The notes under the pieces were generated by a model. That model saw only the letters and a list, made by a program, of their open reading frames with translations, was not told where the DNA came from and made no database searches. A stretch of DNA of 64,000 bases from Nitrosopumilus sp. (lineage in GTDB: Archaea; Thermoproteota; Nitrososphaeria; Nitrososphaerales; Nitrosopumilaceae): contig CBDBLX010000002.1 in the NCBI GenBank assembly GCA_965207445.1, positions 448,001-512,000 of the forward strand, written 5' to 3'. The translations under genes and the position numbers were made by a program. This document shows, piece by piece, positions 6,145-29,748 of this stretch; the first letter of the stretch is position 1, and each line of letters opens with the position of its first letter.

Positions 6145-6810
6145 ATTATAGTGATTGCAATAAATAGTGACATCTACTACTATGTTAACCTCATAGATAC
6201 CGCGCACAGAATTCAAGCAATCATATTTGAGATTGTGTATGGTTTAGATGATACATGTATTCAATTAAAAATAAAATATGAAATCAACAACTTGAACAAA
6301 AAATAGCTAGTAAATATAAAAAGCTAAATAAAAAAGATCATATCATAAATACACTAAAGCACCTTGCCAATACATTAAAAAAAGATAACTCAAACCTAAA
6401 AGAGAATAACACTGCTATGGAAAAACAAAGTCAAAAAAAAGATGCTGCCATACACAATTATGAGACAAAGCTCAACTTTATGAGAATGCCCATATACACC
6501 AATCATCAAAACAGGAAGCTGCGTGGACTAGATGTCTGAGATGAATTGTGTAAAAATATTGCTCTGTCGTCTGATGATAAGTCTAAAAGATGTATGATCT
6601 TATTGTTGTTATTATTATTATACCAAAATAGATTGGCTCACACTTATTTTTGCTATGATAATTGATTATACTTTGTTTTTGAGCTGTATAGTACAATTCA
6701 TGTCTGGGCACTCTGATAGTTATTAAAAAATTTTATATTTTTATTATTAATTATGAATTATTTTGATATAATTAATAACAATTAAATACTGATACTAGTG
6801 CGCTGTAAAT

Positions 6811-7068
6811 ATGACAAAATTGATCCAAGTAAATATTGATGCCAAAGAGGTTGGCAAGGATAAAGCACAAGAATGGGTGCATGAGATCACCGATGTCTGT
6901 ACTGATATGGAGATATCTGATGTAAACGTAACCGGGAAGAAGATCTCTTTTCAGACAGGTCTTTTAGGGATGGATGACATCACTGTTTTTGCGAACATTG
7001 GACAAAAGATCGACGAATATGTTTCCATGGCAAAAGTATTTTGGATTAAAGATATATCTTGCGGTTAA
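6811..7068 (+). CDS. Small hypothetical protein
   Basis: 85-aa ORF after a TATA-like TTAAATA; abuts the downstream feoB-like gene. Confidence 0.6.
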   Translation: MTKLIQVNIDAKEVGKDKAQEWVHEITDVCTDMEISDVNVTGKKISFQTGLLGMDDITVFANIGQKIDEYVSMAKVFWIKDISCG

Positions 7069-7084
7069 GCTGCTCATATTTTCT

Positions 7085-8871: not shown

Positions 8872-9456
8872 TCACCCTAGAATAGCTGAAAATTTTTCAA
8901 ATAGATCGTGCCAACCCTCATCTAGTCTTTTATATGGTATATTGGGTGTATGTTTTTCCTCCAAGATACTGTCACGATACGATTCTCCACACACTGAATC
9001 TATCCATTTTTCATAATTCTCCAGCCATTTCATAGATTCAACAAGCATGTGCAGTATGTGATGCATCTGTTCTGGAGTCTTTGGTATGGTACGTTGTGGA
9101 AGCTGATCAGGGGACCATACATTTGGTATTAGTGCGCTGACTTTGATGAATTTTGGCTCAAATTCATGACGCCATAAAAACAACCCATCATTTTTTGTCG
9201 AAAACATCATTCCAAAACCCCACATGATTACTCGCCTGTCCTGTTTGCAAAATGAGTACTGACTACTCCCATCATCTGGATTCGGTGGCCTTTTTCTTGT
9301 AAACCCATACTTTAACAATAAATTTTCTTTGTGTTGTATGTCAATTCCTATACAGTACAACTGACTTGTAAACAATTTTTTCCATTTATTTTGAAGACGT
9401 TTGGGAATGCGTAGCATCTGTGATTGATCATTTTTCTTTTGTATGGAATCTTGCAC
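8872..9456 (-). CDS. Hypothetical protein
   Basis: 194-aa ORF with protein-like composition. Confidence 0.6.
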   Translation of the reverse strand: MQDSIQKKNDQSQMLRIPKRLQNKWKKLFTSQLYCIGIDIQHKENLLLKYGFTRKRPPNPDDGSSQYSFCKQDRRVIMWGFGMMFSTKNDGLFLWRHEFEPKFIKVSALIPNVWSPDQLPQRTIPKTPEQMHHILHMLVESMKWLENYEKWIDSVCGESYRDSILEEKHTPNIPYKRLDEGWHDLFEKFSAILG

Positions 9457-10014
9457 TCATATCATCTCCTGTTTATCATTGATGTACTTGTATCAAATAT
9501 CGTATACCTCAATTGACATCTCAGATTGACTACACTCACTCATTACATCTAAAATGCTTTGTCTGTATTCGGACTCTTGCGTTTTGTATTCATTGAACAG
9601 ATTTACTAGTAGTCCATGAATCACTTTTCTCTTTGATCTGATACTAAAAGTACTTGAATTCTCCATACTCGCGCTAGAAAATCTTTGTATATTAAGATTT
9701 TAATGAAAATTATTAATGAACATAAAATACCATTACTGTATAAAAAATATTCAATAAAATTATTTCATACTGTTATCTGTGTGTGATTTATTTATATAAT
9801 ATATATATTTATGATTAAAAATTACTATATATATTATATAAAATACATTAAATTTTGGTCATAACACAAAAAAAAGTTATTTTATACAAATTAAATGAGA
9901 TGCCACATCATAAACCCAAATTTTTGAAACTTGCATTATAATGGAGATACATTATTATTAATAATTAATAGAAATTTCATTAAGTTTAATAATACTGTTC
10001 TTATAATTAGTTTA

Positions 10015-16559: not shown

Positions 16560-18086
16560 TCATCTTAATGCTGTGGAATTAATTAACGTGATCTCATCGT
16601 GTATTGATGATATTGCTTTTGCGACATTGTCTTGTGTATCCTCTATTACGATAATGATCCTAGATGTCTCTTCTTGTGCATCAATATTTAATATGTTGAG
16701 TCCTGTTTCTCCTACACGTGCGCTTGTACGTGATGCCACTTGTTGTACACGCCACATTTCATCCCCGATCAAAGTTATGACACCGCGCCTGTATGTTATG
16801 GTCGCAAGAGGATCAAAACTCTTAAAATATTTTTCATTGTTTTTGATGTAATCTGCATCCAAGAATAGTATGCGGCTGAATTCTATCTCGTCTTTTGTGT
16901 ATGGTGACAGTATGACAAATTCGCTATACCTCTTGTCTTTTTCAAGTGATGCAAGTAATTTCTGAACTGCAGTAGTTTCTATTCTGAATATTGCACAGTT
17001 AGATTTACCTGTGACCATTTTAATGGGGTTCTCTGTTTGTTGTTTTTCTGGATTTTTAGTTCTAGTTATGATGGTGGTCTTTTCAGGTTTGTTGAGGTTT
17101 GTCACTATGATGGGCATGTCAACCCCGTTTTCTACCACCTCTTTGATGGCAACAGGATCTAATATCTTCATGCCAAACATACCGGCTAGTCTGGCCTCAT
17201 TATATGATAACTGGTCAACTTCACTTAGGTTATGTTTGACTATCTTTGGATCTGCTGATACAACTGCACTGTCTTTCTCAAAGTTTATTCTTGTATTGTA
17301 TTGTTTGTGGTATAGTATTCCCAAATCTACTGCTGTACGATCTGTTCCGCCGCGCTCATATGTTGTAATGATGCCTTGTTCTGTCTTGCCGATAAATCCG
17401 CCAATAGTTACGACCTCATTTGCATCTAGTATGGCGTGCATTGCAGTCATCTTTCTATTTGACTCTGTTAACAAAAAGTTTGCAGATTCGACATTGTTGT
17501 CAGTTATGATGGGCCAGTCCTCAATTTTCACAGAGTCAGCTTTTATACCATTATGAGTTAGTATGTATTTCATAATATGTGACATTAAGATCTCACCTGA
17601 AAATGCAAGTGACTTTGATCGGATCTCGCCTGTGAACTTTATGTCTTTGTTGTTGCTGTTGCTGTTGGCATTATCATCCTCATTATTATTATTGTTGCTG
17701 CCAATGATCGTATCGAGTGCACTTTGCACTTGTGCCAAGTTATCATCTACAAGTTTGTAACATTGCTGTTCTAGTTGCTCTGAGCCACTCAGGTACTTTT
17801 GTATTATGTTTGAGTATGTATTGCGTATTGAATCAAGTGAGACTTGAGATGCACGGTTTGGGTCTTGTGCATTTCTACCTTGCTCTAGCATCACATCTGT
17901 CAATGAACAAATCTTTGTGTTGTTATTATTGTGATCTGTGATTTTAGCAAGGGGTGCTGAGAATACTGCAATTACCTTTGTAGATTCTGCTTTTAACTCA
18001 TTTATGCGCTCTATGATTCTTGGTATGTACACTCCATCAGGACCAAGCGCACTACCACCGAACTTTGCTATTACTAGGTCAGTCAT
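16560..18086 (-). CDS. lysC: Aspartate kinase
   Basis: AKFGGS, ERGGTD, SADPK, LSYNEA; C-terminal ACT-like domains. Confidence 0.85.
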   Translation of the reverse strand: MTDLVIAKFGGSALGPDGVYIPRIIERINELKAESTKVIAVFSAPLAKITDHNNNNTKICSLTDVMLEQGRNAQDPNRASQVSLDSIRNTYSNIIQKYLSGSEQLEQQCYKLVDDNLAQVQSALDTIIGSNNNNNEDDNANSNSNNKDIKFTGEIRSKSLAFSGEILMSHIMKYILTHNGIKADSVKIEDWPIITDNNVESANFLLTESNRKMTAMHAILDANEVVTIGGFIGKTEQGIITTYERGGTDRTAVDLGILYHKQYNTRINFEKDSAVVSADPKIVKHNLSEVDQLSYNEARLAGMFGMKILDPVAIKEVVENGVDMPIIVTNLNKPEKTTIITRTKNPEKQQTENPIKMVTGKSNCAIFRIETTAVQKLLASLEKDKRYSEFVILSPYTKDEIEFSRILFLDADYIKNNEKYFKSFDPLATITYRRGVITLIGDEMWRVQQVASRTSARVGETGLNILNIDAQEETSRIIIVIEDTQDNVAKAISSIHDEITLINSTALR

Positions 18087-19310: not shown

Positions 19311-19495
19311 GTGTGTTATTGGGCTAGTGTAAATTTTTAGCTTGTTATTTGTGTACGTAAACACTACACATTAATTATTGTGTTGTTTTTGTAAAATGTA
19401 TTTGAGTTTGTACATTTTGTAGTTGTTATTGTTGTTGATACGTGTACACGGACTTTTTCGTCAAGATTTAAATGCATTTTTACAGTCCTAATTTT

Positions 19496-19570
19496 GGGCT
19501 CATAGTCCAGATCGGTTATGACGTCGCCCTTACACGGCGAAGATCCGGGGTTCAAATCCCCGTGGGCCCA
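19496..19570 (+). tRNA. tRNA-Val (anticodon TAC)
   Basis: GGGCTCA...TGGGCCC-A acceptor; anticodon arm TCGCC-CT TAC AC-GGCGA; GTTCAAATC T-loop. Confidence 0.95.
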
Positions 19571-19724
19571 TTCCCATTTGGGTTCAGGTCCATTTGTGTT
19601 GCTTGTCTTTTTGTTATATGGCACGACCTTGCCGTGAGGTTGGTGCGTAATGGTTTCATTAAAGATCCGATAGTTTTCTAATATTTTGTATTCATAATAT
19701 GTGCTCAACTTTCTCCATTATCAA

Positions 19725-19764
19725 AACAAACCAAGATTGCATCAATCTTGTTTAGGGGTTGATG
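19725..19764 (+). repeat. Degenerate orphan copy of the hsdS QTKIASILSGVD repeat
   Basis: AACAAACCAAGATTGCATCAATC then TTGTTTAGGGGTTGATG, matching the hsdS repeats with few changes. Confidence 0.8.
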
Positions 19765-19843
19765 TAATTCTCGGTGGAGTTTCACGTGTCAAGATGCATG
19801 TAATACAATTAACCTTTTTAAAGTTCACGAGAGTACTAATGAC

Positions 19844-20056
19844 ATGGGCACAACAATACAAAAAAAGACATACACAGTTGTCCTAACCAAGGACTTGGAG
19901 GATGGTGGATTTGTAGGTACATGTGACGAGCTTCATGCAGTGTCCGAAGGTGATACGTTCGGTGAAGTGATGTCCAATATGCGAGAAGCAGTAGAACTTG
20001 CGGCCGAGGTGAGTGGCAACATAACTGACTTTAACATGCTAATAGTGGAGAAGTAA
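19844..20056 (+). CDS. hicB: HicB-family antitoxin (short, no DNA-binding domain)
   Basis: YTVVLTKDLEDGGFVGTCDELHAVSEGDTFGEVMSNMREAV. Confidence 0.85.
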   Translation: MGTTIQKKTYTVVLTKDLEDGGFVGTCDELHAVSEGDTFGEVMSNMREAVELAAEVSGNITDFNMLIVEK

Positions 20057-20281
20057 TGTCAAAATTTCCGCTAGTGTCGGGTAACCAGATGATGCGATAT
20101 TTGCAAAAAGGGATTTGTCATAACTCGGCAAAGTGGTAGTCACATAATACTACGTAATGTAGACCACGTCACAGTTGTACCTGTGGGAAACAAAAAACTC
20201 AGAATTGGAACTCAGTTTTCCATACTTTTGTATGCATGGATCGATAAAGACTTGTTTTCCAATGAATATGATCAAATTTAG
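20056..20281 (+). pseudogene. hicA: Frameshifted HicA toxin
   Basis: MSKFPLVSGNQMMRYLQK, frame change at ~20105-20112, then GFVITRQSGSHIILRN... Confidence 0.75.
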
Positions 20282-20323
20282 TACACAGGCATGTTAAATA
20301 GAAATTTTTTGAGCGTACGTCAC

Positions 20324-20395
20324 TTGATTAAGTCAGTACATAAGAAAAGCATGGTTTTGTTTGAAGTCTCAATCAAGTCTATGGCGACGAGCATA
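20324..20395 (+). pseudogene. Relic 5' end of a tyrosine recombinase
   Basis: LIKSVHKKSMVLFEVSIKS aligns by eye with MIKPIRQRSLILFEESIKS at 22947. Confidence 0.65.
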
Positions 20396-20776: not shown

Positions 20777-20986
20777 TCATTTGTATGATGGAGTTTTTTG
20801 CCCTTTTTCATGAGCGCAGATAAATCTGTTCAGGACGTTGATATTCCATGCAATCGATAGTATTTTGCCAAACCGCTTTCTGTTTTTGGCCAAACGCATG
20901 CGACGGTGATCAGACTCACTTGATGGTTTGATCTGCTCAGAGCAGTATCTGTACAGCGTAATTTCACATACTTCACTTGACTTCAT
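20777..20986 (-). CDS. Small hypothetical protein
   Basis: 69-aa ORF divergent from 21088. Confidence 0.4.
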   Translation of the reverse strand: MKSSEVCEITLYRYCSEQIKPSSESDHRRMRLAKNRKRFGKILSIAWNINVLNRFICAHEKGQKTPSYK

Positions 20987-21087: not shown

Positions 21088-21315
21088 ATGACGCTGAGCA
21101 TTAAGATTGCAAGGGGCAAAGAGTACCTGTACTTTCAGGCAGGCAAGGAGTCTCTGTATATCTGTCCCAAGGACAACCCTGCAAAGGTAAAGATGGAGAA
21201 CTTGACTAGGGCGCTTGAACATACACGGGAGAGGATGAATCACTATGCAGACTCATACGAAGAACTTCTTCAGTTATTGCCCTCCAAAGACCGTAAATCA
21301 TATTCAAGGAGGTAA
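21088..21315 (+). CDS. Small basic protein of mobile-element type (possible DNA-binding protein or directionality factor)
   Basis: KIARGKEYLYF beta-hairpin-like start plus helix; 6 nt upstream of hsdS. Confidence 0.55.
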   Translation: MTLSIKIARGKEYLYFQAGKESLYICPKDNPAKVKMENLTRALEHTRERMNHYADSYEELLQLLPSKDRKSYSRR

Positions 21316-21321
21316 GATATT

Positions 21322-22449
21322 TTGAACAAGTTGGATTCTAGGCAAGGTGTTCCTAAAGGGTGGGCCATGACCAAATTAAATGCCATTGGGCAGATCACTG
21401 GCGGTGGCACTCCGGATTCAACAAACTTGAGATATTGGGGTGGAGACGTACTTTGGGCAGTTCCAACAGACATTACAAAATTGTTAACAAACTATATTCA
21501 TGATACAGAAAGAAAAATCACAAAATTAGGATTGAAAAACAGTTCTGCAAAACTACTTCCTGCTGGGACTGTTTTAATTACCACTCGAGCTACAATTGGA
21601 GAATGCGCAATTACTGCCAAGTCCATATCTACAAATCAAGGATTTCAAAACATAACCTGCAATAACAACTTTGATAACTTGTATGTATTTTATATGATAA
21701 AATACAATACAAACAAACTATTGCGTATGTCGTATGGAACTACTTTTCTTGAAATTTCAAAATCTACAATTAAAAATATAAAAATTAAAATTCCAAAACA
21801 AAAATTTGAGCAAACTAAGATTGCATCAATCCTTTCGGGAGTTGATGCATTGATAGAGTTGACACAACAAATGGTTGATAAGACTAAGCAATTAAAGAAA
21901 GGACTCACGAAAACATTGTTAACCAGAGGGATTGGCCACACGGAATTTATAACGAAGATTCTGGGGAACGTTGCCGAATTCACAAGTGGAGAATTTTTAG
22001 CAACAAAAGATTACAACCGTGGCAAGATCCCTGTTTATGGTGGAAATGGGATTTCCGGACATCATAATAAGGAACTAATTGCATATGATACAATAATTTT
22101 TGGCAGAGTAGGCGCATATTGCGGTTCAATACATTTTTCAAATGGCAAATCTTGGGTCACTGACAATGCCATATTTATTAGAAATCTCTCGGAACATATT
22201 ATCATAGAATATCTTTACAGATTTTTATCCCATTTGAATATTCGACTTTTAGCTGAAGTATCTGCACAGCCAAAAATCACCCAAGACATTCTCACGCATA
22301 TTAAGATCCGGTTTCCAAGTATAGACAAACAACGTAAAATTGCATCAATCCTGTCAGGGGTTGACGCGGTCTACAGCCATCTTGTACATGTCAATATGCA
22401 CGTGAAACGGGCAATCTTTTTAATGTTCTTAAAGTCAGTAGTATCATGA
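21322..22449 (+). CDS. hsdS: Type I R-M specificity subunit, copy A (two TRDs, lacks normal C-terminal helix)
   Basis: VPKGW, GGTP, STNQGF, EQTKIASILSGVDA central repeat; sequence after the second IASILSGVDA is non-canonical. Confidence 0.9.
   Translation: MNKLDSRQGVPKGWAMTKLNAIGQITGGGTPDSTNLRYWGGDVLWAVPTDITKLLTNYIHDTERKITKLGLKNSSAKLLPAGTVLITTRATIGECAITAKSISTNQGFQNITCNNNFDNLYVFYMIKYNTNKLLRMSYGTTFLEISKSTIKNIKIKIPKQKFEQTKIASILSGVDALIELTQQMVDKTKQLKKGLTKTLLTRGIGHTEFITKILGNVAEFTSGEFLATKDYNRGKIPVYGGNGISGHHNKELIAYDTIIFGRVGAYCGSIHFSNGKSWVTDNAIFIRNLSEHIIIEYLYRFLSHLNIRLLAEVSAQPKITQDILTHIKIRFPSIDKQRKIASILSGVDAVYSHLVHVNMHVKRAIFLMFLKSVVS
21817..21854 (+). repeat. Inverted repeat A, left (38 bp)
   Basis: AAGATTGCATCAATCCTTTCGGGAGTTGATGCATTGAT; perfect reverse complement at 24632-24669. 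Confidence 0.95.
22339..22367 (+). repeat. Inverted repeat B, left (29 bp)
   Basis: ATTGCATCAATCCTGTCAGGGGTTGACGC; perfect reverse complement at 23987-24015. Confidence 0.95.
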
Positions 22450-22658
22450 GTACCACTATCCAGAAGAAGACATACTCGGTCACCATAACCAAAGATGATG
22501 AAGGACTTTTCATCGGGAGATGTGATGAACTACATGCAAATTCACAAGGTGAATCGTTTGGAGAGATTGTAGAAAACATGAAAGACGCGGTAGGACTTGT
22601 GGCCGAAGAAGTAGACAACATAGCAGACTTTAACATGCTTATAATAGAACAGAAATGA
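22446..22658 (+). CDS. hicB: HicB-family antitoxin
   Basis: Clear paralogue of 19844-20056. Confidence 0.85.
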   Translation: MSTTIQKKTYSVTITKDDEGLFIGRCDELHANSQGESFGEIVENMKDAVGLVAEEVDNIADFNMLIIEQK

Positions 22659-22891
22659 CAAAGACGCCCAGAATATCAGGTAACCAAATGACACGATATC
22701 TACAAAGAAAAGGATACGTTATAATTTGCAGAAAGGGAAGTCATATAATGTTAAGAAAAGAAGACGTCATTACAACTGTACCTGCTGGAATCAAAACATT
22801 AGGTATTGGAATACAATACGCCATCCTTACTGATGTCAGTATATCAAAAACAGAATTCATTAATGATTACGATTGTGGGTTGATAAAGTAA
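22655..22891 (+). CDS. hicA: HicA-family mRNA interferase toxin (intact)
   Basis: GYVIICRKGSHIML...TTVP with catalytic GSH; 4-nt overlap with hicB. Confidence 0.85.
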   Translation: MTKTPRISGNQMTRYLQRKGYVIICRKGSHIMLRKEDVITTVPAGIKTLGIGIQYAILTDVSISKTEFINDYDCGLIK

Positions 22892-22946
22892 CTGACAAAG
22901 GATACAGACATGGGTATAAAATAGAACTGTTGAAAGCATACAATAC

Positions 22947-23868
22947 TTGATCAAACCAATACGTCAAAGGAGTCTGATCTTGTTTGAAGAATCAATCAAG
23001 TCAAAATACACTAAAAGGAACTACACATCACACATAAATCAATTCAAAAGATTTACGAGTGTATCAAGCTTTGATCAATGGCTAGAAATTTCATCAAAAG
23101 ATTTGCAAGTAATGTTAGAAGACTATGCAATACATCTAAGACACACCGCCAATCCCAATTCCATACCATCGCTATTCAAGGGAATAAGACATTTTTTTTG
23201 TGATGAATCAGGTTGATCTCAATTGGCATGTGATATACAAAATGTTTCCACAAAAACAAAAAGTAGTAGATCTAAAGTCATATACCACAAATGATGTTCG
23301 TTCAATACTATCTCATGCGATCAGTCTTAGGGATAAAGCACTGATCCATTTTCTTGCGTCAACAGGCGCAAGAATAGGGGTATTTGATCATAACTTGTCA
23401 ATCAAACATCTAAAAAAAATGCCGGCCGGATGCACAGCAGTACTGCTTTATGCCGAGACGGTTGAAGAATACTGGGCGTTTCTCACCCGTCAGGCCACAC
23501 TAGCACTTGAAGTATACCATCGCTTGCGCAAACACAAAGGAGAAACATTTCATTCCAACACTCCCGTCTTTTCTACATTAAAATTTGGCCCACGCCAGCT
23601 TGGTTGGAGTGGCTCTCGGTCTGCAATATACAGAATCGTGTCAAAAAGTGGCATACGACTTAAGCAAGGTGATCGTTTTGACATTCAAGTGGATCATGGA
23701 TTTCGAAAACGATACAATACAATTCTCAAGCTTGAGAATTCAGTTAACTATAACATTGCAGAAAAACTTATGGGCCACAAAAATGGTTTGGATGGAGTAT
23801 ATTTTACACCATCCTTGAACGAATTATTTAGTGAGTTTAAAAAAGTGAGATCTAAATTAGAAGTTTAG
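22947..23868 (+). pseudogene. Tyrosine recombinase split by one extra T in a T8 tract (23192-23199)
   Basis: STGARIG, HGFRKR, LMGH, DGVY catalytic motifs; removing one T fuses 22947-23216 and 23200-23868 into ~306 aa. Confidence 0.85.
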
Positions 23869-23886
23869 TTAACACGTCACTTTTAG

Positions 23887-25191
23887 TTACACTTTTACAC
23901 GTATTTGTCCTGTTAGAAGCTTTTGCATAAGGCCTTTTTTCAATTCTTCCAGTTTTTTCTTATATTCCTGATTTTTTTGGATGTATGCGTCAACCCCTGA
24001 CAGGATTGATGCAATCTTGGTTTGTTCTGCTAATGTTGGTATGGGGAATTTGAAACCAACAAAGTTTTTTTGATACAAGTGGTTTATGGTAGAACCTGCT
24101 TTAAGTTTATTCAAGAATTTTTCAAAATAATCTGAAAATAATATGTAGTATAGAAACAGCGGTCTGTATTGATTATCAATTGGACGTATTACGAATACAC
24201 CACTATTCAAAGTCGCAGGTTTTTTTGGCAACGACACAAATGCAATCTTTCCTATTGTACCATCCTTCGTAACTAGAATATCTGCATTTTTCAATTGAAT
24301 ATTTGGATCTTGAATGTAACGATCTTTGTTTACGTAGACACAATTCTCCCAATCGATTTTGCCATTTTTAAAATCTGTACCTGTGACAAGGTGGTAATTC
24401 CCAGTAACAAGATATTCGGATGTGGTTAAACCTTGCCAACCGATCCTACCTTTTAAACTAGAATTCTTGCCAAGTTGCTGTGTTTTCCATTCTTTTGGAA
24501 TTTCAATCTTTTTGCCAAAAAGCCATTTTACTTTCTTAAACTTTTTGTGATTTATCCCTCGGGTCAACAACTGTTGCATCAATCCTCTTTTCAGATTTTC
24601 ATATTTCACTATGATCTGCTGCGTCTTCTCAATCAATGCATCAACTCCCGAAAGGATTGATGCAATCTTGGTTTGTTCTTGCAACGTGGGTAGTAATATT
24701 GGTAACTTTGAATACTGTTGTGCGTTAACATTTGGTTGCACGCCTTGCGTTAATTCAGAAGTTACCCATGTCCAGTATACGTCGCCGTGCGTATAATGAT
24801 GAAGAAAAACAGGCAATATCCTTTTCTCATTTAATTTAAATCGTATCAAATATCCTGCGTAAACACAAAGACCCTGATCTGAAGAAAACAAAAATGTCCT
24901 TCCAACAGAACCGGTTCGTGCAAAAAGAAAATCGTTTTGTTCAAGTACATATTGTTGATTGTTTGTTAATTTAGCAGAGACTTTTTCATCTTTCAACTGT
25001 CCTGCATCATTAATGTCGGTGATTCGTATATACCTAGCTAATTTTGAATCATATGGGAGTGCAGCATCCCCACTTCCATACTCTGGTTTTCTAGATGATA
25101 TGTCAATTAATTTTTGAATTTTCCACTCTTCTGGAATTTTAATCTCTTTGCCAAACAGCCATTTGACTTTTTTATACTTAGATTTATTCAT
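23887..25191 (-). CDS. hsdS: Type I R-M specificity subunit, copy B (complete)
   Basis: IPEEW-TRD-EQTKIASILSGVDA-KRGLMQQLLT-TRD-EQTKIASILSGVDA-KKGLMQKLLTGQIRV; directly downstream of hsdM. Confidence 0.95.
   Translation of the reverse strand: MNKSKYKKVKWLFGKEIKIPEEWKIQKLIDISSRKPEYGSGDAALPYDSKLARYIRITDINDAGQLKDEKVSAKLTNNQQYVLEQNDFLFARTGSVGRTFLFSSDQGLCVYAGYLIRFKLNEKRILPVFLHHYTHGDVYWTWVTSELTQGVQPNVNAQQYSKLPILLPTLQEQTKIASILSGVDALIEKTQQIIVKYENLKRGLMQQLLTRGINHKKFKKVKWLFGKKIEIPKEWKTQQLGKNSSLKGRIGWQGLTTSEYLVTGNYHLVTGTDFKNGKIDWENCVYVNKDRYIQDPNIQLKNADILVTKDGTIGKIAFVSLPKKPATLNSGVFVIRPIDNQYRPLFLYYILFSDYFEKFLNKLKAGSTINHLYQKNFVGFKFPIPTLAEQTKIASILSGVDAYIQKNQEYKKKLEELKKGLMQKLLTGQIRVKV
23987..24015 (-). repeat. 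Inverted repeat B, right
   Basis: Reverse complement of 22339-22367. Confidence 0.95.
24632..24669 (-). repeat. Inverted repeat A, right
   Basis: Reverse complement of 21817-21854. Confidence 0.95.
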
Positions 25192-25194
25192 GAT

Positions 25195-26676
25195 CTATAC
25201 CTTAAACTTTAGTTCTTTGAGATCTTGCCATACCTTGGATTCAAGTTTCGCACGTTCCTTGTCGAGTTTTTTTAAATCTGTAATTACATTTTGAATATCT
25301 ATTTCTTCCTCAGGTTCTGAAATGTCTACGTATCTGGGTACGTTAAGATTGAATTCATTCTCTTTTAATTCGTCATAATCTGCAACATGAGAATATCTGT
25401 CAATGTCCTTGAATGTATGAAATGTCTTTGTAATTTTTGTAATGTCTTGATCTCTTAACTTGTTTCTGTTTTTGCCTTCTTGGTATTCTTTTGCAGCATA
25501 AATGAATATCATCTTGTTCTTGCGTACTTTGGGTTTTTTGCGGTTTAGTATCATGACACATGCAGGAATACTCGTCCCAAAAAACAATTTTTCTGGAAGT
25601 GCAATTATGCCTTCTATAATGTCCTGATTTATCATATTTTCACGTATTTGGCCCTCGATGCCGCCCCTGAACAACACGCCTTGCGAGCATATGATTGCGG
25701 CCTGACCAGTGTTGTTAAGGTGAGAAAACATATGCTGGATAAAGGCAAAGTCTGCTTTGCCATTTGAGGGTGGTATGCCAAATTCAAATCTTCTGTGCGA
25801 ATCACTTTCGGCAGCCTTGTTGTCCCAATCCATTGAAAACGGAAAATTGGCAAGCACTCTGTCGTATTTCTTGATGCTGCCCTTGTCGATAAGCTGCGGA
25901 TTTGATAACACATCTCCATATGCAATTGTAAAGTGCGTGATTCCGTGCAAAACCATGTTCATCTTACACATTGCCAGATTGCCATAGTTTGACTCTTGTC
26001 CATCCAGCACCATGTTCCTTGGATCTCCTTTTTCTTTCTCTACGTGTTTTCTCGATATAATTAACATGCCTCCAGATCCGCATGTTGGATCGCATATGCG
26101 CATGCCTTCTTTTGGCTGTGTTATGTTCACTAGAAGACTTACAACCTCACGTGGTGTAAAAAATTCACCTCCCTTCTTTTTTGTTGCATCTGCAAACTGC
26201 TCTAGCAGATACTCATATGCATCACCAAATATGTCCTCTTTTTCAAGATCAGAATTTCTAAGCTGTGGCTCGTTGAAATGTGTGACAAGCTTTGCAAGCT
26301 TGTCATCAGGATATTTTTTGGGATCTGAATATTTTGTATTTGTAAGGACACCCTCAAGCTTTGGATTTGCTCTTTCAATCTCTTTGCATGTCTTGTCTAT
26401 CTTCTCACCTATTTTCTTACTTGTTGTCTGCAGCTTGCGCCACCTTGCATCTTTTGGAACAAAAAAGTCGTGAAAGATCTCCATATTTGCTTCCGTTTCA
26501 TTTTTCCCCTGTTTTCTAAGATTCTCTACATTTTCTTCGAATCTATCATTAAGGCGCTTGAGAAACAACAATGTCATTACAGGCTGCCTGTATTCTGAAG
26601 CGTCTAGGCTGCCACGCAAGATGTCTGATGCCTTCCAGAGATGGGACTTGAGTGTCTCTAGTGTTACTTTACTCAA
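25195..26676 (-). CDS. hsdM: Type I R-M N6-adenine methyltransferase
   Basis: GEFFTP, DPTCGSGGML, ANFPF, FNLNVPRYVD. Confidence 0.95.
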   Translation of the reverse strand: MSKVTLETLKSHLWKASDILRGSLDASEYRQPVMTLLFLKRLNDRFEENVENLRKQGKNETEANMEIFHDFFVPKDARWRKLQTTSKKIGEKIDKTCKEIERANPKLEGVLTNTKYSDPKKYPDDKLAKLVTHFNEPQLRNSDLEKEDIFGDAYEYLLEQFADATKKKGGEFFTPREVVSLLVNITQPKEGMRICDPTCGSGGMLIISRKHVEKEKGDPRNMVLDGQESNYGNLAMCKMNMVLHGITHFTIAYGDVLSNPQLIDKGSIKKYDRVLANFPFSMDWDNKAAESDSHRRFEFGIPPSNGKADFAFIQHMFSHLNNTGQAAIICSQGVLFRGGIEGQIRENMINQDIIEGIIALPEKLFFGTSIPACVMILNRKKPKVRKNKMIFIYAAKEYQEGKNRNKLRDQDITKITKTFHTFKDIDRYSHVADYDELKENEFNLNVPRYVDISEPEEEIDIQNVITDLKKLDKERAKLESKVWQDLKELKFKV

Positions 26677-26760
26677 TGCACCTTGGACTATACCTGGCTT
26701 AATAGCAGTTACCCTGAAACAAACTACAAAGTTTTTACGTATGAATTTCCCAATATAACC

Positions 26761-29748
26761 ATGTTCACTGTAGGCAAAGGTGATGAAGTAACAGAATCAG
26801 AGCTCCCCGCCTTGGAGCAACTCTATGCTATGGGGTATGAATATATGGACTCTGCAGACCTTGCAGGGGAGCGGCGTGACTGTGGTACGGTCCTTCTCTA
26901 TGGTAGGCTTGAAGATGCCATTAGGCGACTTAATCCAAATCTTGATGAGGATGGCATCAAAGATGCTTTGGCACAGATTGACGAGGACAACTATGCGCAC
27001 CACCTAGATATCGTAGATACAAATGAAAAGATCAGGGCCAAGCTTGTGGAACTGTCAGTTTCTGGTGGCTTGAATCCGATCACGGTGACACAAAAAACAG
27101 ATGATGGCCCAATCGACACGAGGGTTCGTATTTTTGACTTTGAAAATACACAAACCAATAATTTTTTGGTAACGAATCAGTTTCGCCTCAACGGATTTGA
27201 ACATTACATTATACCGGATATCGTAATTTTTGTAAATGGTATACCGTTGGTTATCATAGAATGCAAATCACCCGCAACACCGGATCCAATTCTTGATGCA
27301 GTAGAGCGAAAAAATTTTGCCAAATACCAGCAACAAAACCAGGGGTACGAACGCCTTTTCTTTTACAATCATTGCCTGATTGCCACATGTGGCACATTGG
27401 CCCGTGTTGGAACCATACGTGCAAGTGTAAATCATTTTGCAAAATGGACCACTCCGAACCCATTGACTAGTGAAGATGTTGAGAAAATGTGTGGGCGAAA
27501 ACCCCGCGAGCAAGAGATACTAATTGCAGGATTACTGTCAAAAGAAAACTTACTTGATCACCTTCAAAACTTTGTATTGTATGAAACACGAAATGCCAAG
27601 CGCATCAAAATGATTGCCAAGCATCAGCAATTTCGTGCCGTGAATCAATGCATAAAAAAGACATCGGTACCTGCAGGAGACAAGGGAGGAGTAATATGGC
27701 ACACCCAAGGATCGGGCAAATCATTTTCCATGCTGTGGTTTGCAACCCAGCTGAGGTACAAGTTTGACAACCCTCCAATACTCATAGTCACTGACAGAAG
27801 ACAACTGGACAAGCAGATTCACGACACGTTTAGAAAATGCGGCTTTCCTGATCCAATCAAGGCTATGTCTGGTGCTCATCTTTCTGAGCTACTCAAATAC
27901 CCTCATGGCAAGACCATCATGACAATAATTGACAAATTTGCAACTCCCACCAAATCATTTACCGATGAAAAGGTGATATGTCTGGTGGACGAAGCTCACC
28001 GAAGCCAGTACAAGATGAACGCTGCTCAAATGAGAATTGCAATGCCCAATGCCATATTCTTTGCCTTTACCGGCACGCCAATTACAAAAAATGAACAATC
28101 CCACACGTATCGGGTTTTCGGAGAACTGCTTGACAAGTACGGGTTTGAGGAATCCCAAAATGATGGCTCTACACTCCCGATCAAATACGATGGAAGAATG
28201 CCTCGTCTGTACGTGGAGGGTGAGAATTCAATAGATGAAATATTTGATAGAATATTCTCTGATCTTGATCCTTCTCTAAAAAACACACTCAAAAAACGAT
28301 ATGTGACCAAAACAAGTATTGCAGAGGCCCCACACAGAATCGCGCAGATAGTATCGGATTTGATCAACCATTACACGCAACACATAGAACCTAACGGATA
28401 CAAGGCGATGCTAGTTGCACCTTCAAGGGAGGCAGCAGTCACATACAAAAAGAGAATTGACGAGATGAGAGGCCCTGTCTCAAAGATAATTATGACATCA
28501 GAACCAGGCGAAGTGGGCAAGGACGGGACCAGTTGGGACGAATACCATCTTACATCTGAACAACGCAATATTGAATCTGAAAAATTCAAAAACCCCGACG
28601 ATCCGACCAAGATTCTCATAGTCGTTGACATGTTACTTGTAGGGTATGACGCTCCAATATGCCAAGTGCTCTATCTTGATCGCAGCATACGTGAACACAA
28701 TCTACTTCAGGCCATCGCACGTGTAAACCGGCCTTATGATGACACAAAGAAGTACGGATTGGTCGTGGACTATTCAGGGGTTATGTTGGATCTGCAAAAG
28801 GCCCTTGATGCATTTGATACAAAGGATGTGAGTGGAGCTCTGACACCCGTCTCTGAACTTCTTGCTATACTTTGTATGCGGCATGCAGAAACAATGTCTC
28901 TGTTTGACAGAGTCGATATTACTGACAAAGATCAGGTGCTTGAGCACTTTGGTTCTGAGCACAGTCGCGACTTGTTGGCGCGCAGATTTAGACTGTTTTC
29001 AAGCGCCTTGGATTCAGTTCTTCCAGGGAAAGAGGCAGAACCTTATATGGATGACTTTAAGGCTGTGGCCGTTGCATGGCAGACCGTAAAAACGTTTTAC
29101 ACTAATGATACATACAGTACCCATCGATATGCAAAAAAGATTCAGAAAATTATAGACAAGCATATACACTCCCTTGGCATATCTATACTTGTGGATCCAA
29201 CTGAAATAACACATGAGAATTTCTTGGTAACAGTATCAAAACACGTTCCCAAAAACAAACGAGCACAAGCTGCCATGATCAAGAATCGGGCAATACAGAT
29301 AATCAAAGAGATGATGGCAAACAATCCCGCATACTATGAAAAACTCTATGCGCGACTTAAAAGACTGATTTGTGATGAAGAAGCACGTAGACAAAAAAAT
29401 GCAGGGTACTTTACCAACCCCGAGGCATATGAGGAAATCTACAATGAGGCCCTTGCAGAAGAAAAAGAACGCAAGAAAGTATTTGGAGCATATCATGCTA
29501 CACAGTTTGAATTTTCACTATATGGACGGCTTAATGAAACTCTGGGCAGGGATGCCTCACTTGACCTTACAAAGAAAATATTTAAACAGATAAAACCATT
29601 CACTGAAATGGTGGATTACAAGCAAAATCCCGGCATAGAAAAGGACATTAAAAAAATAGTATATGAAACACTGTCAAGTCACATGCCCCTTGCTCAAATA
29701 AACGACATTATGGATGAGACTGTGACACTTGTGAGGGTTGTGTTATAA
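26761..29748 (+). CDS. hsdR: Type I restriction endonuclease R subunit
   Basis: PDIVIFVNGIPLVIIECK nuclease motif, WHTQGSGKS, DEAHRSQY, FTGTP, QAIARVNR. Confidence 0.95.
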   Translation: MFTVGKGDEVTESELPALEQLYAMGYEYMDSADLAGERRDCGTVLLYGRLEDAIRRLNPNLDEDGIKDALAQIDEDNYAHHLDIVDTNEKIRAKLVELSVSGGLNPITVTQKTDDGPIDTRVRIFDFENTQTNNFLVTNQFRLNGFEHYIIPDIVIFVNGIPLVIIECKSPATPDPILDAVERKNFAKYQQQNQGYERLFFYNHCLIATCGTLARVGTIRASVNHFAKWTTPNPLTSEDVEKMCGRKPREQEILIAGLLSKENLLDHLQNFVLYETRNAKRIKMIAKHQQFRAVNQCIKKTSVPAGDKGGVIWHTQGSGKSFSMLWFATQLRYKFDNPPILIVTDRRQLDKQIHDTFRKCGFPDPIKAMSGAHLSELLKYPHGKTIMTIIDKFATPTKSFTDEKVICLVDEAHRSQYKMNAAQMRIAMPNAIFFAFTGTPITKNEQSHTYRVFGELLDKYGFEESQNDGSTLPIKYDGRMPRLYVEGENSIDEIFDRIFSDLDPSLKNTLKKRYVTKTSIAEAPHRIAQIVSDLINHYTQHIEPNGYKAMLVAPSREAAVTYKKRIDEMRGPVSKIIMTSEPGEVGKDGTSWDEYHLTSEQRNIESEKFKNPDDPTKILIVVDMLLVGYDAPICQVLYLDRSIREHNLLQAIARVNRPYDDTKKYGLVVDYSGVMLDLQKALDAFDTKDVSGALTPVSELLAILCMRHAETMSLFDRVDITDKDQVLEHFGSEHSRDLLARRFRLFSSALDSVLPGKEAEPYMDDFKAVAVAWQTVKTFYTNDTYSTHRYAKKIQKIIDKHIHSLGISILVDPTEITHENFLVTVSKHVPKNKRAQAAMIKNRAIQIIKEMMANNPAYYEKLYARLKRLICDEEARRQKNAGYFTNPEAYEEIYNEALAEEKERKKVFGAYHATQFEFSLYGRLNETLGRDASLDLTKKIFKQIKPFTEMVDYKQNPGIEKDIKKIVYETLSSHMPLAQINDIMDETVTLVRVVL

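Follow-up and report, generated by a model that had tools for sequence, protein, structure and literature searches.

A 64,000-nucleotide (nt) stretch of the genome of a Nitrosopumilus sp. (assembly GCA_965207445.1, contig CBDBLX010000002.1, positions 448,001 to 512,000 of the forward strand), here called the window and numbered from its first base, contains between 21.0 and 29.8 kb a Type I restriction-modification (RM) locus in which a pair of specificity genes, hsdS-A and hsdS-B, adjoins intact hsdM and hsdR genes. An earlier note on this DNA had described the hsdS pair as a candidate inversion switch, and here we report a computational analysis of that proposal. The window's genome (G000; 2.61 Mb on two contigs, C1 and C2, 96.4% complete, 5.5% contamination) is grouped in one genus with 36 other genomes, and these same-genus relatives are Nitrosopumilus, in line with the archaeal host that the note had claimed; the host is thus Nitrosopumilus, an ammonia-oxidizing archaeon. 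The locus is composed as follows.

21322 to 22449, + strand: hsdS-A, 375 amino acids (aa), with target recognition domain (TRD) A1, a central helix, TRD A2, site B and a tail that replaces the C-terminal helix
21817 to 21854, + strand: left arm of repeat A (central site), which holds the dyad ATTGCATCAAT-N10-GTTGATGCA
22339 to 22367, + strand: left arm of repeat B (C-terminal site)
22368 to 22445, + strand: tail DNA, which is the conserved region upstream of the hicB-like gene
22446 to 22658, + strand: hicB-like open reading frame (ORF), 70 aa, named from its position and size upstream of hicA
22655 to 22891, + strand: hicA (HicA_toxin, PF07927; Pfam score 27.1 bits, cut-off 27.0)
22947 to 23868, + strand: XerA-like tyrosine recombinase gene, split into two overlapping frames (22947-23216 and 23200-23868)
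23887 to 23986, - strand: the sole C-terminal helix coding piece, inside the segment between B and its right arm, B'
23987 to 24015, - strand: right arm of repeat B (B')
24632 to 24669, - strand: right arm of repeat A (A')
23887 to 25191, - strand: hsdS-B, 434 aa, complete, with TRD B1, a central helix, TRD B2 and a C-terminal helix; directly downstream of hsdM
25195 to 26676, - strand: hsdM, full length (Pfam HsdM_N and N6_Mtase)
26683 to 29748, + strand: hsdR (Pfam HSDR_N, SWI2_SNF2, ResIII and T1R_D3-like)

The Type I system is complete: Pfam families match HsdM, HsdR and the two HsdS proteins over their full length. The two hsdS genes are convergent, each product is matched twice by the Pfam family Methylase_S, and pairwise identity among TRDs A1, A2, B1 and B2 is 20 to 31%. 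The two proteins end differently: HsdS-A runs straight from site B into a hydrophobic, non-helical tail of 26 residues, whereas HsdS-B has a canonical helix at its terminus. Repeat look-up, Pfam and the TRD comparison thus agree with the anatomy given in the earlier note, namely, facing hsdS genes with four different TRDs, nested repeats and a recombinase gene in between. Its designation "hicBA" held in part, in that HicA is recognized, marginally, by its toxin domain, and the 70-aa ORF upstream has no match to HicB or any other family in Pfam (up to an E value of 10) or NCBIfam.

Both repeats lie inside hsdS reading frames at TRD boundaries. The arms of repeat A are perfect reverse complements over 38 nt and those of repeat B over 29 nt, and in both cases the first base beyond each end differs. 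Outside the repeats, identity falls away as the note had stated: downstream of A, the next 95 nt, still encoding homologous helices, agree at 56/95 positions; the 60 nt upstream of A agree at 19/60; and the flanks of B are unrelated in sequence. The peptide KIASILSGVDA is encoded four times in the locus. Four synonymous positions distinguish its A-type from its B-type copies, and at all four the partner arms are identical. By a crude estimate from genome codon usage (513 long ORFs of the window's genome), the chance that two independent codings would coincide in this way is ~6e-7 for A and ~2e-5 for B. Elsewhere in the 2.6-Mb genome, the A 16-mer recurs in only one orphan hsdS fragment and the B 16-mer has no further occurrence; a degenerate site pattern is found in the four arms and one orphan fragment and nowhere else. 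As for equal identity among unlinked hsdS genes, which the note had associated with mere coding conservation, the full-length unlinked hsdS gene on C2 (~103.8-106.2 kb) is a member of a different family, carries the peptide AIAKILSDLD and lacks the site, and a motif search of the other unlinked hsdS gene, on C1, found no such conserved region. For these reasons, the unlinked genes are a weak control.

To derive the consequences of inversion, we built the three inverted versions of the locus by coordinates in a script and translated them from the two fixed start codons. The four resulting states, with lengths quoted for the plus-strand gene and the hsdM-linked gene in that order, are the following.

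Reference state: plus-strand gene A1-A2-tail, hsdM-linked gene B1-B2-helix (375 / 434 aa)
B inverted: plus-strand gene A1-A2-helix, hsdM-linked gene B1-B2-tail (381 / 428 aa)
A inverted: plus-strand gene A1-B2-helix, hsdM-linked gene B1-A2-tail (425 / 384 aa)
A and B inverted: plus-strand gene A1-B2-tail, hsdM-linked gene B1-A2-helix (419 / 390 aa)

Both reading frames stay open in all four simulated states. Two predictions of the earlier note are reproduced by these simulations: inversion at A swaps the second TRDs in frame, and inversion at B decides which gene receives the sole C-terminal helix. Because the helix piece (23887-23986) lies within the B-B' segment, inversion at B would hand it to the other gene. 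The tail that takes the place of the helix is no true part of the protein. At other loci, the stretch that precedes the hicB-like gene can be aligned with the tail DNA, the stop codon of the tail overlaps the hicB-like start codon, and a T/A-rich box (consensus TTTTAATA) stands ~27 nt before the hicB-like ATG, in the same column in 16/18 aligned sequences. In 13/18 of these sequences, among them orphan contexts without a partner hsdS, a recombination site lies ~75-90 nt upstream of the hicB-like gene. Given the resemblance of the box to the archaeal TATA consensus, we infer that the HsdS-A tail is the putative promoter of the hicB-like gene read through in the hsdS frame.

At the central site, the arms of a pair resemble each other more closely than they resemble the arms of other loci, as observed among ten loci of the window's Type I family, compared over 30-nt sites. 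Central partner arms show 0, 1, 0, 0 and 1 mismatches within a locus, compared with a mean of 5.54 between loci (100 pairs; range, 1 to 11). Derived changes, from Ser to Gly in one relative (L040) and from SGV to ANI in another (L057), are present in both central arms, which shows that the two arms have exchanged sequence. Within one locus, the mean difference between central and C-terminal sites is 4.56 nt, with a minimum of 2. One recurrent difference is the Leu codon within the site, which is CTT in 12/15 central sites and CTG in 15/16 C-terminal sites. Moreover, three of the four A/B differences in the window fall inside the 10-nt center of the dyad. This pattern suggests that A and B share common binding arms and have incompatible centers, making them two site types that would not cross-react. 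Incompatible centers would preclude recombination of A with B', or between the direct repeats within one gene.

The design is not confined to the window. A profile of the recombinase matches 92/201 Nitrosopumilaceae genomes (E <= 1e-20), comprising 78/143 high-quality genomes and 19/27 genera; the tally includes three unpublished genomes (G137, G152 and G153), all with matches, and weaker matches may be other tyrosine recombinases. We fetched 33 loci with the recombinase gene (numbered with the prefix L), 10/33 of them on contigs shorter than 11 kb. Nearly all come from records named Nitrosopumilus, Nitrosopumilaceae, Cenarchaeum, Nitrosotalea or Thaumarchaeota/Nitrososphaerota, apart from one short contig binned as a Hyphomicrobiaceae metagenome-assembled genome. 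By tblastn, hsdS homologues were detected in 16/33 loci. In 8/33 loci (L036, L040, L042, L045, L046, L047, L057 and L058), the recombinase gene is enclosed by the arms of perfect inverted repeats of 18-287 nt, and in five further ones (L037, L039, L043, L048 and L053) such repeats lie beside it. Three loci from differently titled genome records (L040, L046 and L047) share one design, in which a tail-ended hsdS (+) is followed by hicBA, the recombinase gene, a helix-ended hsdS (-) and then hsdM, with two or three nested repeat pairs each; the L046 contig stops before hsdM. In L053 and L024, the tail-ended hsdS is linked to hsdM, and the helix-ended gene adjoins hsdR on the opposite strand. A B-type inversion is predicted to give this arrangement, although there are further differences between these loci and the window. 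In the comparison of related genomes that the note had proposed, the design thus recurs with coevolving arms, and two loci display the predicted other state. A second Type I family (HsdM ~26% identical) carries longer repeats with a core of the same arms and spacing, ATTGAATCAAT-N10-ATTGATGCA (L042 and L045).

Outside the hsdS context, a recombinase of the same family (51% identical) lies in L058 between perfect inverted repeats of 100 and 214 nt (6759-7071 / 9287-9729). An Eco57I-type methyltransferase gene (1157 aa) carries these repeats at its C-terminal end, as does a 269-aa partial copy on the opposite strand. Upstream there is a helicase/PLD nuclease gene; downstream there are TIR and OLD-like genes.

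The recombinase itself was recognized through its family. A profile built from 18 members matches the archaeal XerA structures 5hxy (E value of 6.5e-7) and 4a8e (E value of 1.2e-3), and the single sequence searched against the PDB gave no match. The NCBIfam models XerA_Arch, XerD and XerC all score far below their cut-offs; at 46 bits against the 220 required by XerA_Arch, the protein is not XerA itself. For the fold, we used an AlphaFold model of the intact L040 relative, the first sequence of the alignment (pLDDT [predicted local distance difference test] of 86.1), instead of the broken window gene. Foldseek assigned this model a probability of 1.00 to XerA, Cre, XerH, IntI and lambda Int (E values of 2.3e-8 to 1.5e-4), and the two-domain fold of XerA, Cre and lambda Int was found in it. 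R132, R243, H267 and Y275 do not vary among the 18 sequences, H240 shows at least 90% conservation, and equivalents of all five are present in the C-terminal fragment of the window gene. We take these residues, by motif and without superposition, to be the catalytic R...H-x-x-R...H/W...Y set. On this evidence, the protein is a divergent tyrosine recombinase of a separate clade, with XerA as its closest match.

In the window, the two recombinase fragments join exactly at GIRHF|(F)VMN when aligned with relatives. A run of seven T residues (T7) in place of the eight (T8) at 23192-23199 gives a single frame; T7 is found in L035, L040 and L057 and T5 in most other relatives. Two relatives that seemed to share the frameshift, L023 and L054, were rejected, as coordinates and alignment place both parts in one frame. 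Only four public sequencing runs (X1-X4) contain the locus, all from one sample of one study, all as contigs assembled at k=31 from mixed strains. Contigs with one T fewer occur at depths of 4.7/12.8 (X2), 25.4/73.6 (X3) and 12.1/23.5 (X4), and one T7-allele contig carries five linked single-nucleotide polymorphisms. From the T8 and T7 contigs together, the frameshift is real in the window's strain, and a frame-restoring allele is present in the same sample. The internal tyrosine recombinase of the earlier note is therefore where it had been placed, between the hsdS genes, with an XerA/Cre-like fold in the model of its relative, but it is frameshifted here.

Further copies of the module, in decay, occur in the same genome. 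The region's left border is a tRNA-Val (TAC) gene at 19495 to 19571 (+ strand; ARAGORN), and directly after it, at 19716 to 20379 (+ strand), lies a decayed second copy, with a degenerate B-type site (19716-19762; 89% identical to B'), a hicB-like ORF (19844-20056) that shares 61% identity with the first, a hicA with a frameshift and a short remnant of the recombinase gene. An orphan half-hsdS lies ~1.1 Mb from the window locus (G000:C2:1581138-1581768; L021 5150-5505). It has one TRD, an A-type site that is identical to A at 32/33 nt with a Gly-to-Arg change, an hsdS-A-like tail and a hicB-like gene, and no recombinase gene.

Taken together, these data indicate that the locus is probably an hsdS inversion switch (a shufflon or inverton) of a type conserved in Nitrosopumilaceae. 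In the mechanism that we propose, the invertible DNA encodes a dedicated tyrosine recombinase of XerA-like type, which would recombine two nested pairs of sites placed within the hsdS frames. Recombination at pair A, after the first TRD, would exchange the second TRDs; recombination at pair B, after the second TRD, would flip a cassette that consists of the hicB-like gene with its putative promoter, hicA, the gene for the recombinase and the helix piece. The B flip would decide which HsdS ends in the single C-terminal helix and which in a meaningless tail, and a tail-ended HsdS would presumably lose function. Four in-frame states are expected, with the hsdM-linked gene B1-B2 or B1-A2, complete or tail-ended, and the other gene A1-A2 or A1-B2 with the opposite ending. 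As a tyrosine recombinase needs matching centers, A should not cross with B. In the window's strain, the switch may be locked in the state in which the hsdM-linked gene is B1-B2 and complete, such locking being probable since the recombinase is inactivated by the additional T in the T7 run.

A broader reading, which we advance tentatively and hold to be somewhat short of an even chance, is that a programmable restriction switch with two layers is widespread in Nitrosopumilaceae. A single XerA-like recombinase would act on two natural, non-cross-reacting sites hidden in synonymous hsdS positions, one swapping a TRD and the other passing the single C-terminal helix between the two hsdS genes, as an on/off layer, and changing the orientation of the toxin-antitoxin and recombinase genes with respect to the hsdM operon; this clade would also flip the specificity end of the Eco57I-type gene in L058. 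If this holds, one of the most abundant archaeal groups would have phase-variable methylomes and virus defense, and if the site classes are truly orthogonal, they would represent natural heterospecific recombination sites hidden in coding sequence.

Several observations weigh against an operating inversion switch. No alternative orientation at A or B was seen in the k=31 contigs, which cannot bridge A and in which co-occurring strains confound B. Around A, contigs end at 21846 and start at 21825, and any 38-nt repeat would force such breaks. At B, the contig ends are 22365 and 24015 and the contig starts 23986 or 23998, off the pattern expected of a mixture of B inversions (the left end being 22365, not 22367); strain variants and related hsdS genes in the sample account for these breaks, which therefore support no conclusion. 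An opposite-strand junction from 22328 to 24487 is present in all four runs (depths of 2, 3.9, 12.2 and 11.8; shorter side, 38 nt) and fuses, in frame, the end of TRD A2 with the beginning of TRD B2. It lies off the repeats, 10 nt before B and ~150 nt beyond A', and its depth is like that of variant-strain contigs in the same runs. The codon signature of the two site classes has exceptions in the L046 tail site (CTT), in the L036 (CTC) and L057 (CTG) central sites, and in the orphan fragment, where an A-type site stands beside a tail. Among C-terminal partners, the contrast within versus between loci is weak (1, 1, 2, 1, 1 and 2 mismatches, compared with a between-loci mean of 2.89 over 114 pairs). 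The recombinase does not reach the gathering score of the Pfam family Phage_integrase (PF00589; cut-off, 27.1 bits), neither in the window fragment (26.1 bits) nor in three intact relatives (19.5, 25.5 and 20.1 bits). Lastly, the gene in the window is broken by one extra T; run X1 holds a gap-free contig with T8 at a depth of 11.2 and no deletion, and a genome-wide profile search returned only two matches, one of which is the broken gene, and no other intact copy. Two loose contig ends at repeat A that resembled new TRD partners were traced to the genome's own orphan fragment (G000:C2:1581415-1581498) and rejected as such.

Protein and metagenome databases were likewise searched for recombinant forms. 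With HsdS-A as the query (E <= 1e-10), the best 120 of 5047 proteins, with the "shorter" length class left out, include no near-identical recombinant HsdS, and the closest non-self match among them is 71% identical with the same tail design. Nor did JGI metagenome contigs contain one; the nine loci found there are all at most 45% identical.

The broken gene raises the question of whether the locus is an ancestral switch that once worked and no longer flips, its recombinase dead in this strain and its repeats merely still intact. We regard this as unlikely, though as an alternative to be taken seriously. It would fit the T8 contig and the lack of a second intact recombinase gene described above, and the two decayed module copies, which show that such modules do decay, as well as the recombinase pseudogenes in L026 and L032/L065. 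Set against this are the two repeat pairs, both still perfect, and the intactness of all other genes; the T7 allele in the same sample further implies that inactivation is recent or reversible at the homopolymer. Such a loss would also bear on the present state alone and leave the nature of the system unchanged. Those same extra copies, one beside the tRNA-Val gene and one at the distant half-hsdS, could instead point to a mobile cassette, in which site, hicB-like gene, hicA and recombinase gene form an integrative element that targets hsdS, the repeats being attachment or target sequences and inversion being incidental or absent. The distance of ~75-90 nt between the site and the hicB-like gene in 13/18 sequences, orphan contexts included, and the several recombinase copies per genome in many relatives agree with this idea. 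However, integration leaves direct repeats, whereas the arms here and in L040, L046, L047 and L057 are inverted and nested in two genes; the cassette carries the sole C-terminal helix piece in antisense, which makes sense only for a toggle; and pair A lies outside the cassette, so that insertion of the latter does not explain it. We therefore consider the mobile-cassette explanation improbable.

It is very improbable, in our view, that no site-specific event takes place at all and that homologous recombination, gene conversion or coding constraint keeps the repeats identical while the recombinase serves another purpose. The repeats do coincide with the most conserved HsdS peptide, the C-terminal sites are alike even between loci, and an unlinked orphan fragment is 97% identical to A over 33 nt. 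Against this reading stand the abrupt fall from 38/38 to 56/95 within helices that are still homologous, the A/B synonymous differences that are kept between loci, the presence of hsdS homologues in 16/33 recombinase loci, and the absence of the site from an unlinked full-length hsdS gene of a different family. An hsdS inversion switch thus remains our preferred explanation, and the switching question is directly testable, as the recombinase is compact and the sites are short and well defined.

Other features of the region are noted here for completeness. A 75-aa ORF (21088 to 21315, + strand), directly upstream of hsdS-A, has no usable match in Pfam or NCBIfam. A DNA paralogue, 85% identical, is present at G000:C2:1004571-1004868, and in L035 and L047 homologues of the ORF precede hsdS or hsdM. 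The ORF may encode a small regulatory protein for the RM operon. Between positions 20800 and 20966, the summed contig depth is 15-30x that of neighboring DNA in all four runs, and this sequence is seemingly common to many sequences in the sample. Farther upstream, a 508-aa ORF (16560-18086) contains long Asn-rich low-complexity inserts.

Programmed hsdS inversion is well studied in host-associated bacteria, and the locus described here belongs to a conserved family in Nitrosopumilaceae, which are globally important nitrifiers. PMC7672463 describes a bacterial survey, and PMC9881135, a large bacterial survey, states that archaea were not scanned. PMC10028968 counts 12 putative invertons among 42 long-read data sets from archaea (36 from Euryarchaeota and 6 from Crenarchaeota) and describes chromosomal invertons as minimally investigated in Archaea. 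Two reviews of archaeal RM systems (PMC10609329 and PMC11033074), searched by term, make no mention of inversion, recombinase or phase variation in that sense, and the hsdS examples named in the consulted part of a 2026 review are all bacterial. Archaeal terms were not found in the retrieved main text of Atack et al. 2020 (PMC7394358), and entries in its supplement list S1/S2.NmaSCMORF606P of N. maritimus SCM1, with a 39-bp inverted repeat, together with hsdS genes with inverted repeats from Methanobacterium, Methanobrevibacter and Archaeoglobus. The earlier note's statement that no characterized archaeal example was known needs qualification accordingly: we found no characterized archaeal hsdS inversion in the literature, of which subscription-only papers and some supplements may hold more, but computational archaeal candidates, SCM1 among them, had been listed in 2020. 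Like the window locus, the SCM1 candidate is a Nitrosopumilus Type I locus with two hsdS genes that share an inverted repeat; in contrast, the supplement entry places its repeat at gene positions 6-45, which is the 5' end.

How does the locus compare with systems of known behavior? Archaeal XerA (PDB 5hxy and 4a8e) provides the best profile and fold matches of the recombinase family; the window's recombinase forms a separate clade, which shares its locus with hsdS homologues in the 16/33 loci mentioned above and with another RM specificity gene in one (L058). For the sites, a parallel is offered by the heterospecific spacer variants of lox and FRT, which have common arms and different centers and recombine only with their own kind. 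Those variants are engineered, whereas the difference between A and B is natural and lies in synonymous codon positions, and by analogy the same behavior is proposed for it. In the hsd loci of Mycoplasma pulmonis (Dybvig et al. 1998), facing hsdS genes are reported to recombine at short internal sites to yield chimeric specificity subunits. The window locus resembles that system in its facing hsdS genes with short sites inside the genes, M. pulmonis being a bacterium; L053 and L024, where the repeats flank hsdM, come closer to its layout than the window locus does. The SpnIII/ivr (cod) system of Streptococcus pneumoniae is a Type I locus with several hsdS genes and the tyrosine recombinase CreX/PsrA (PMC4948785 and PMC7672463). 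Several hsdS genes, inverted repeats at TRD boundaries within coding sequences, a tyrosine recombinase encoded in the locus and in-frame TRD exchange, here predicted, are common to both. Unlike SpnIII/ivr, the present locus has an archaeal host, an XerA-like recombinase below the Pfam cut-off and a hicA pair on the cassette, and its switching is predicted; moreover, both of its hsdS genes have their own 5' ends, and the second gene is without a 3' helix, which sits on the invertible cassette. What sets the Nitrosopumilus locus apart is the combination of a recombinase clade of XerA-like type, a C-terminal helix that two genes share as a proposed on/off layer, a cassette that carries a hicA pair, and two classes of sites.

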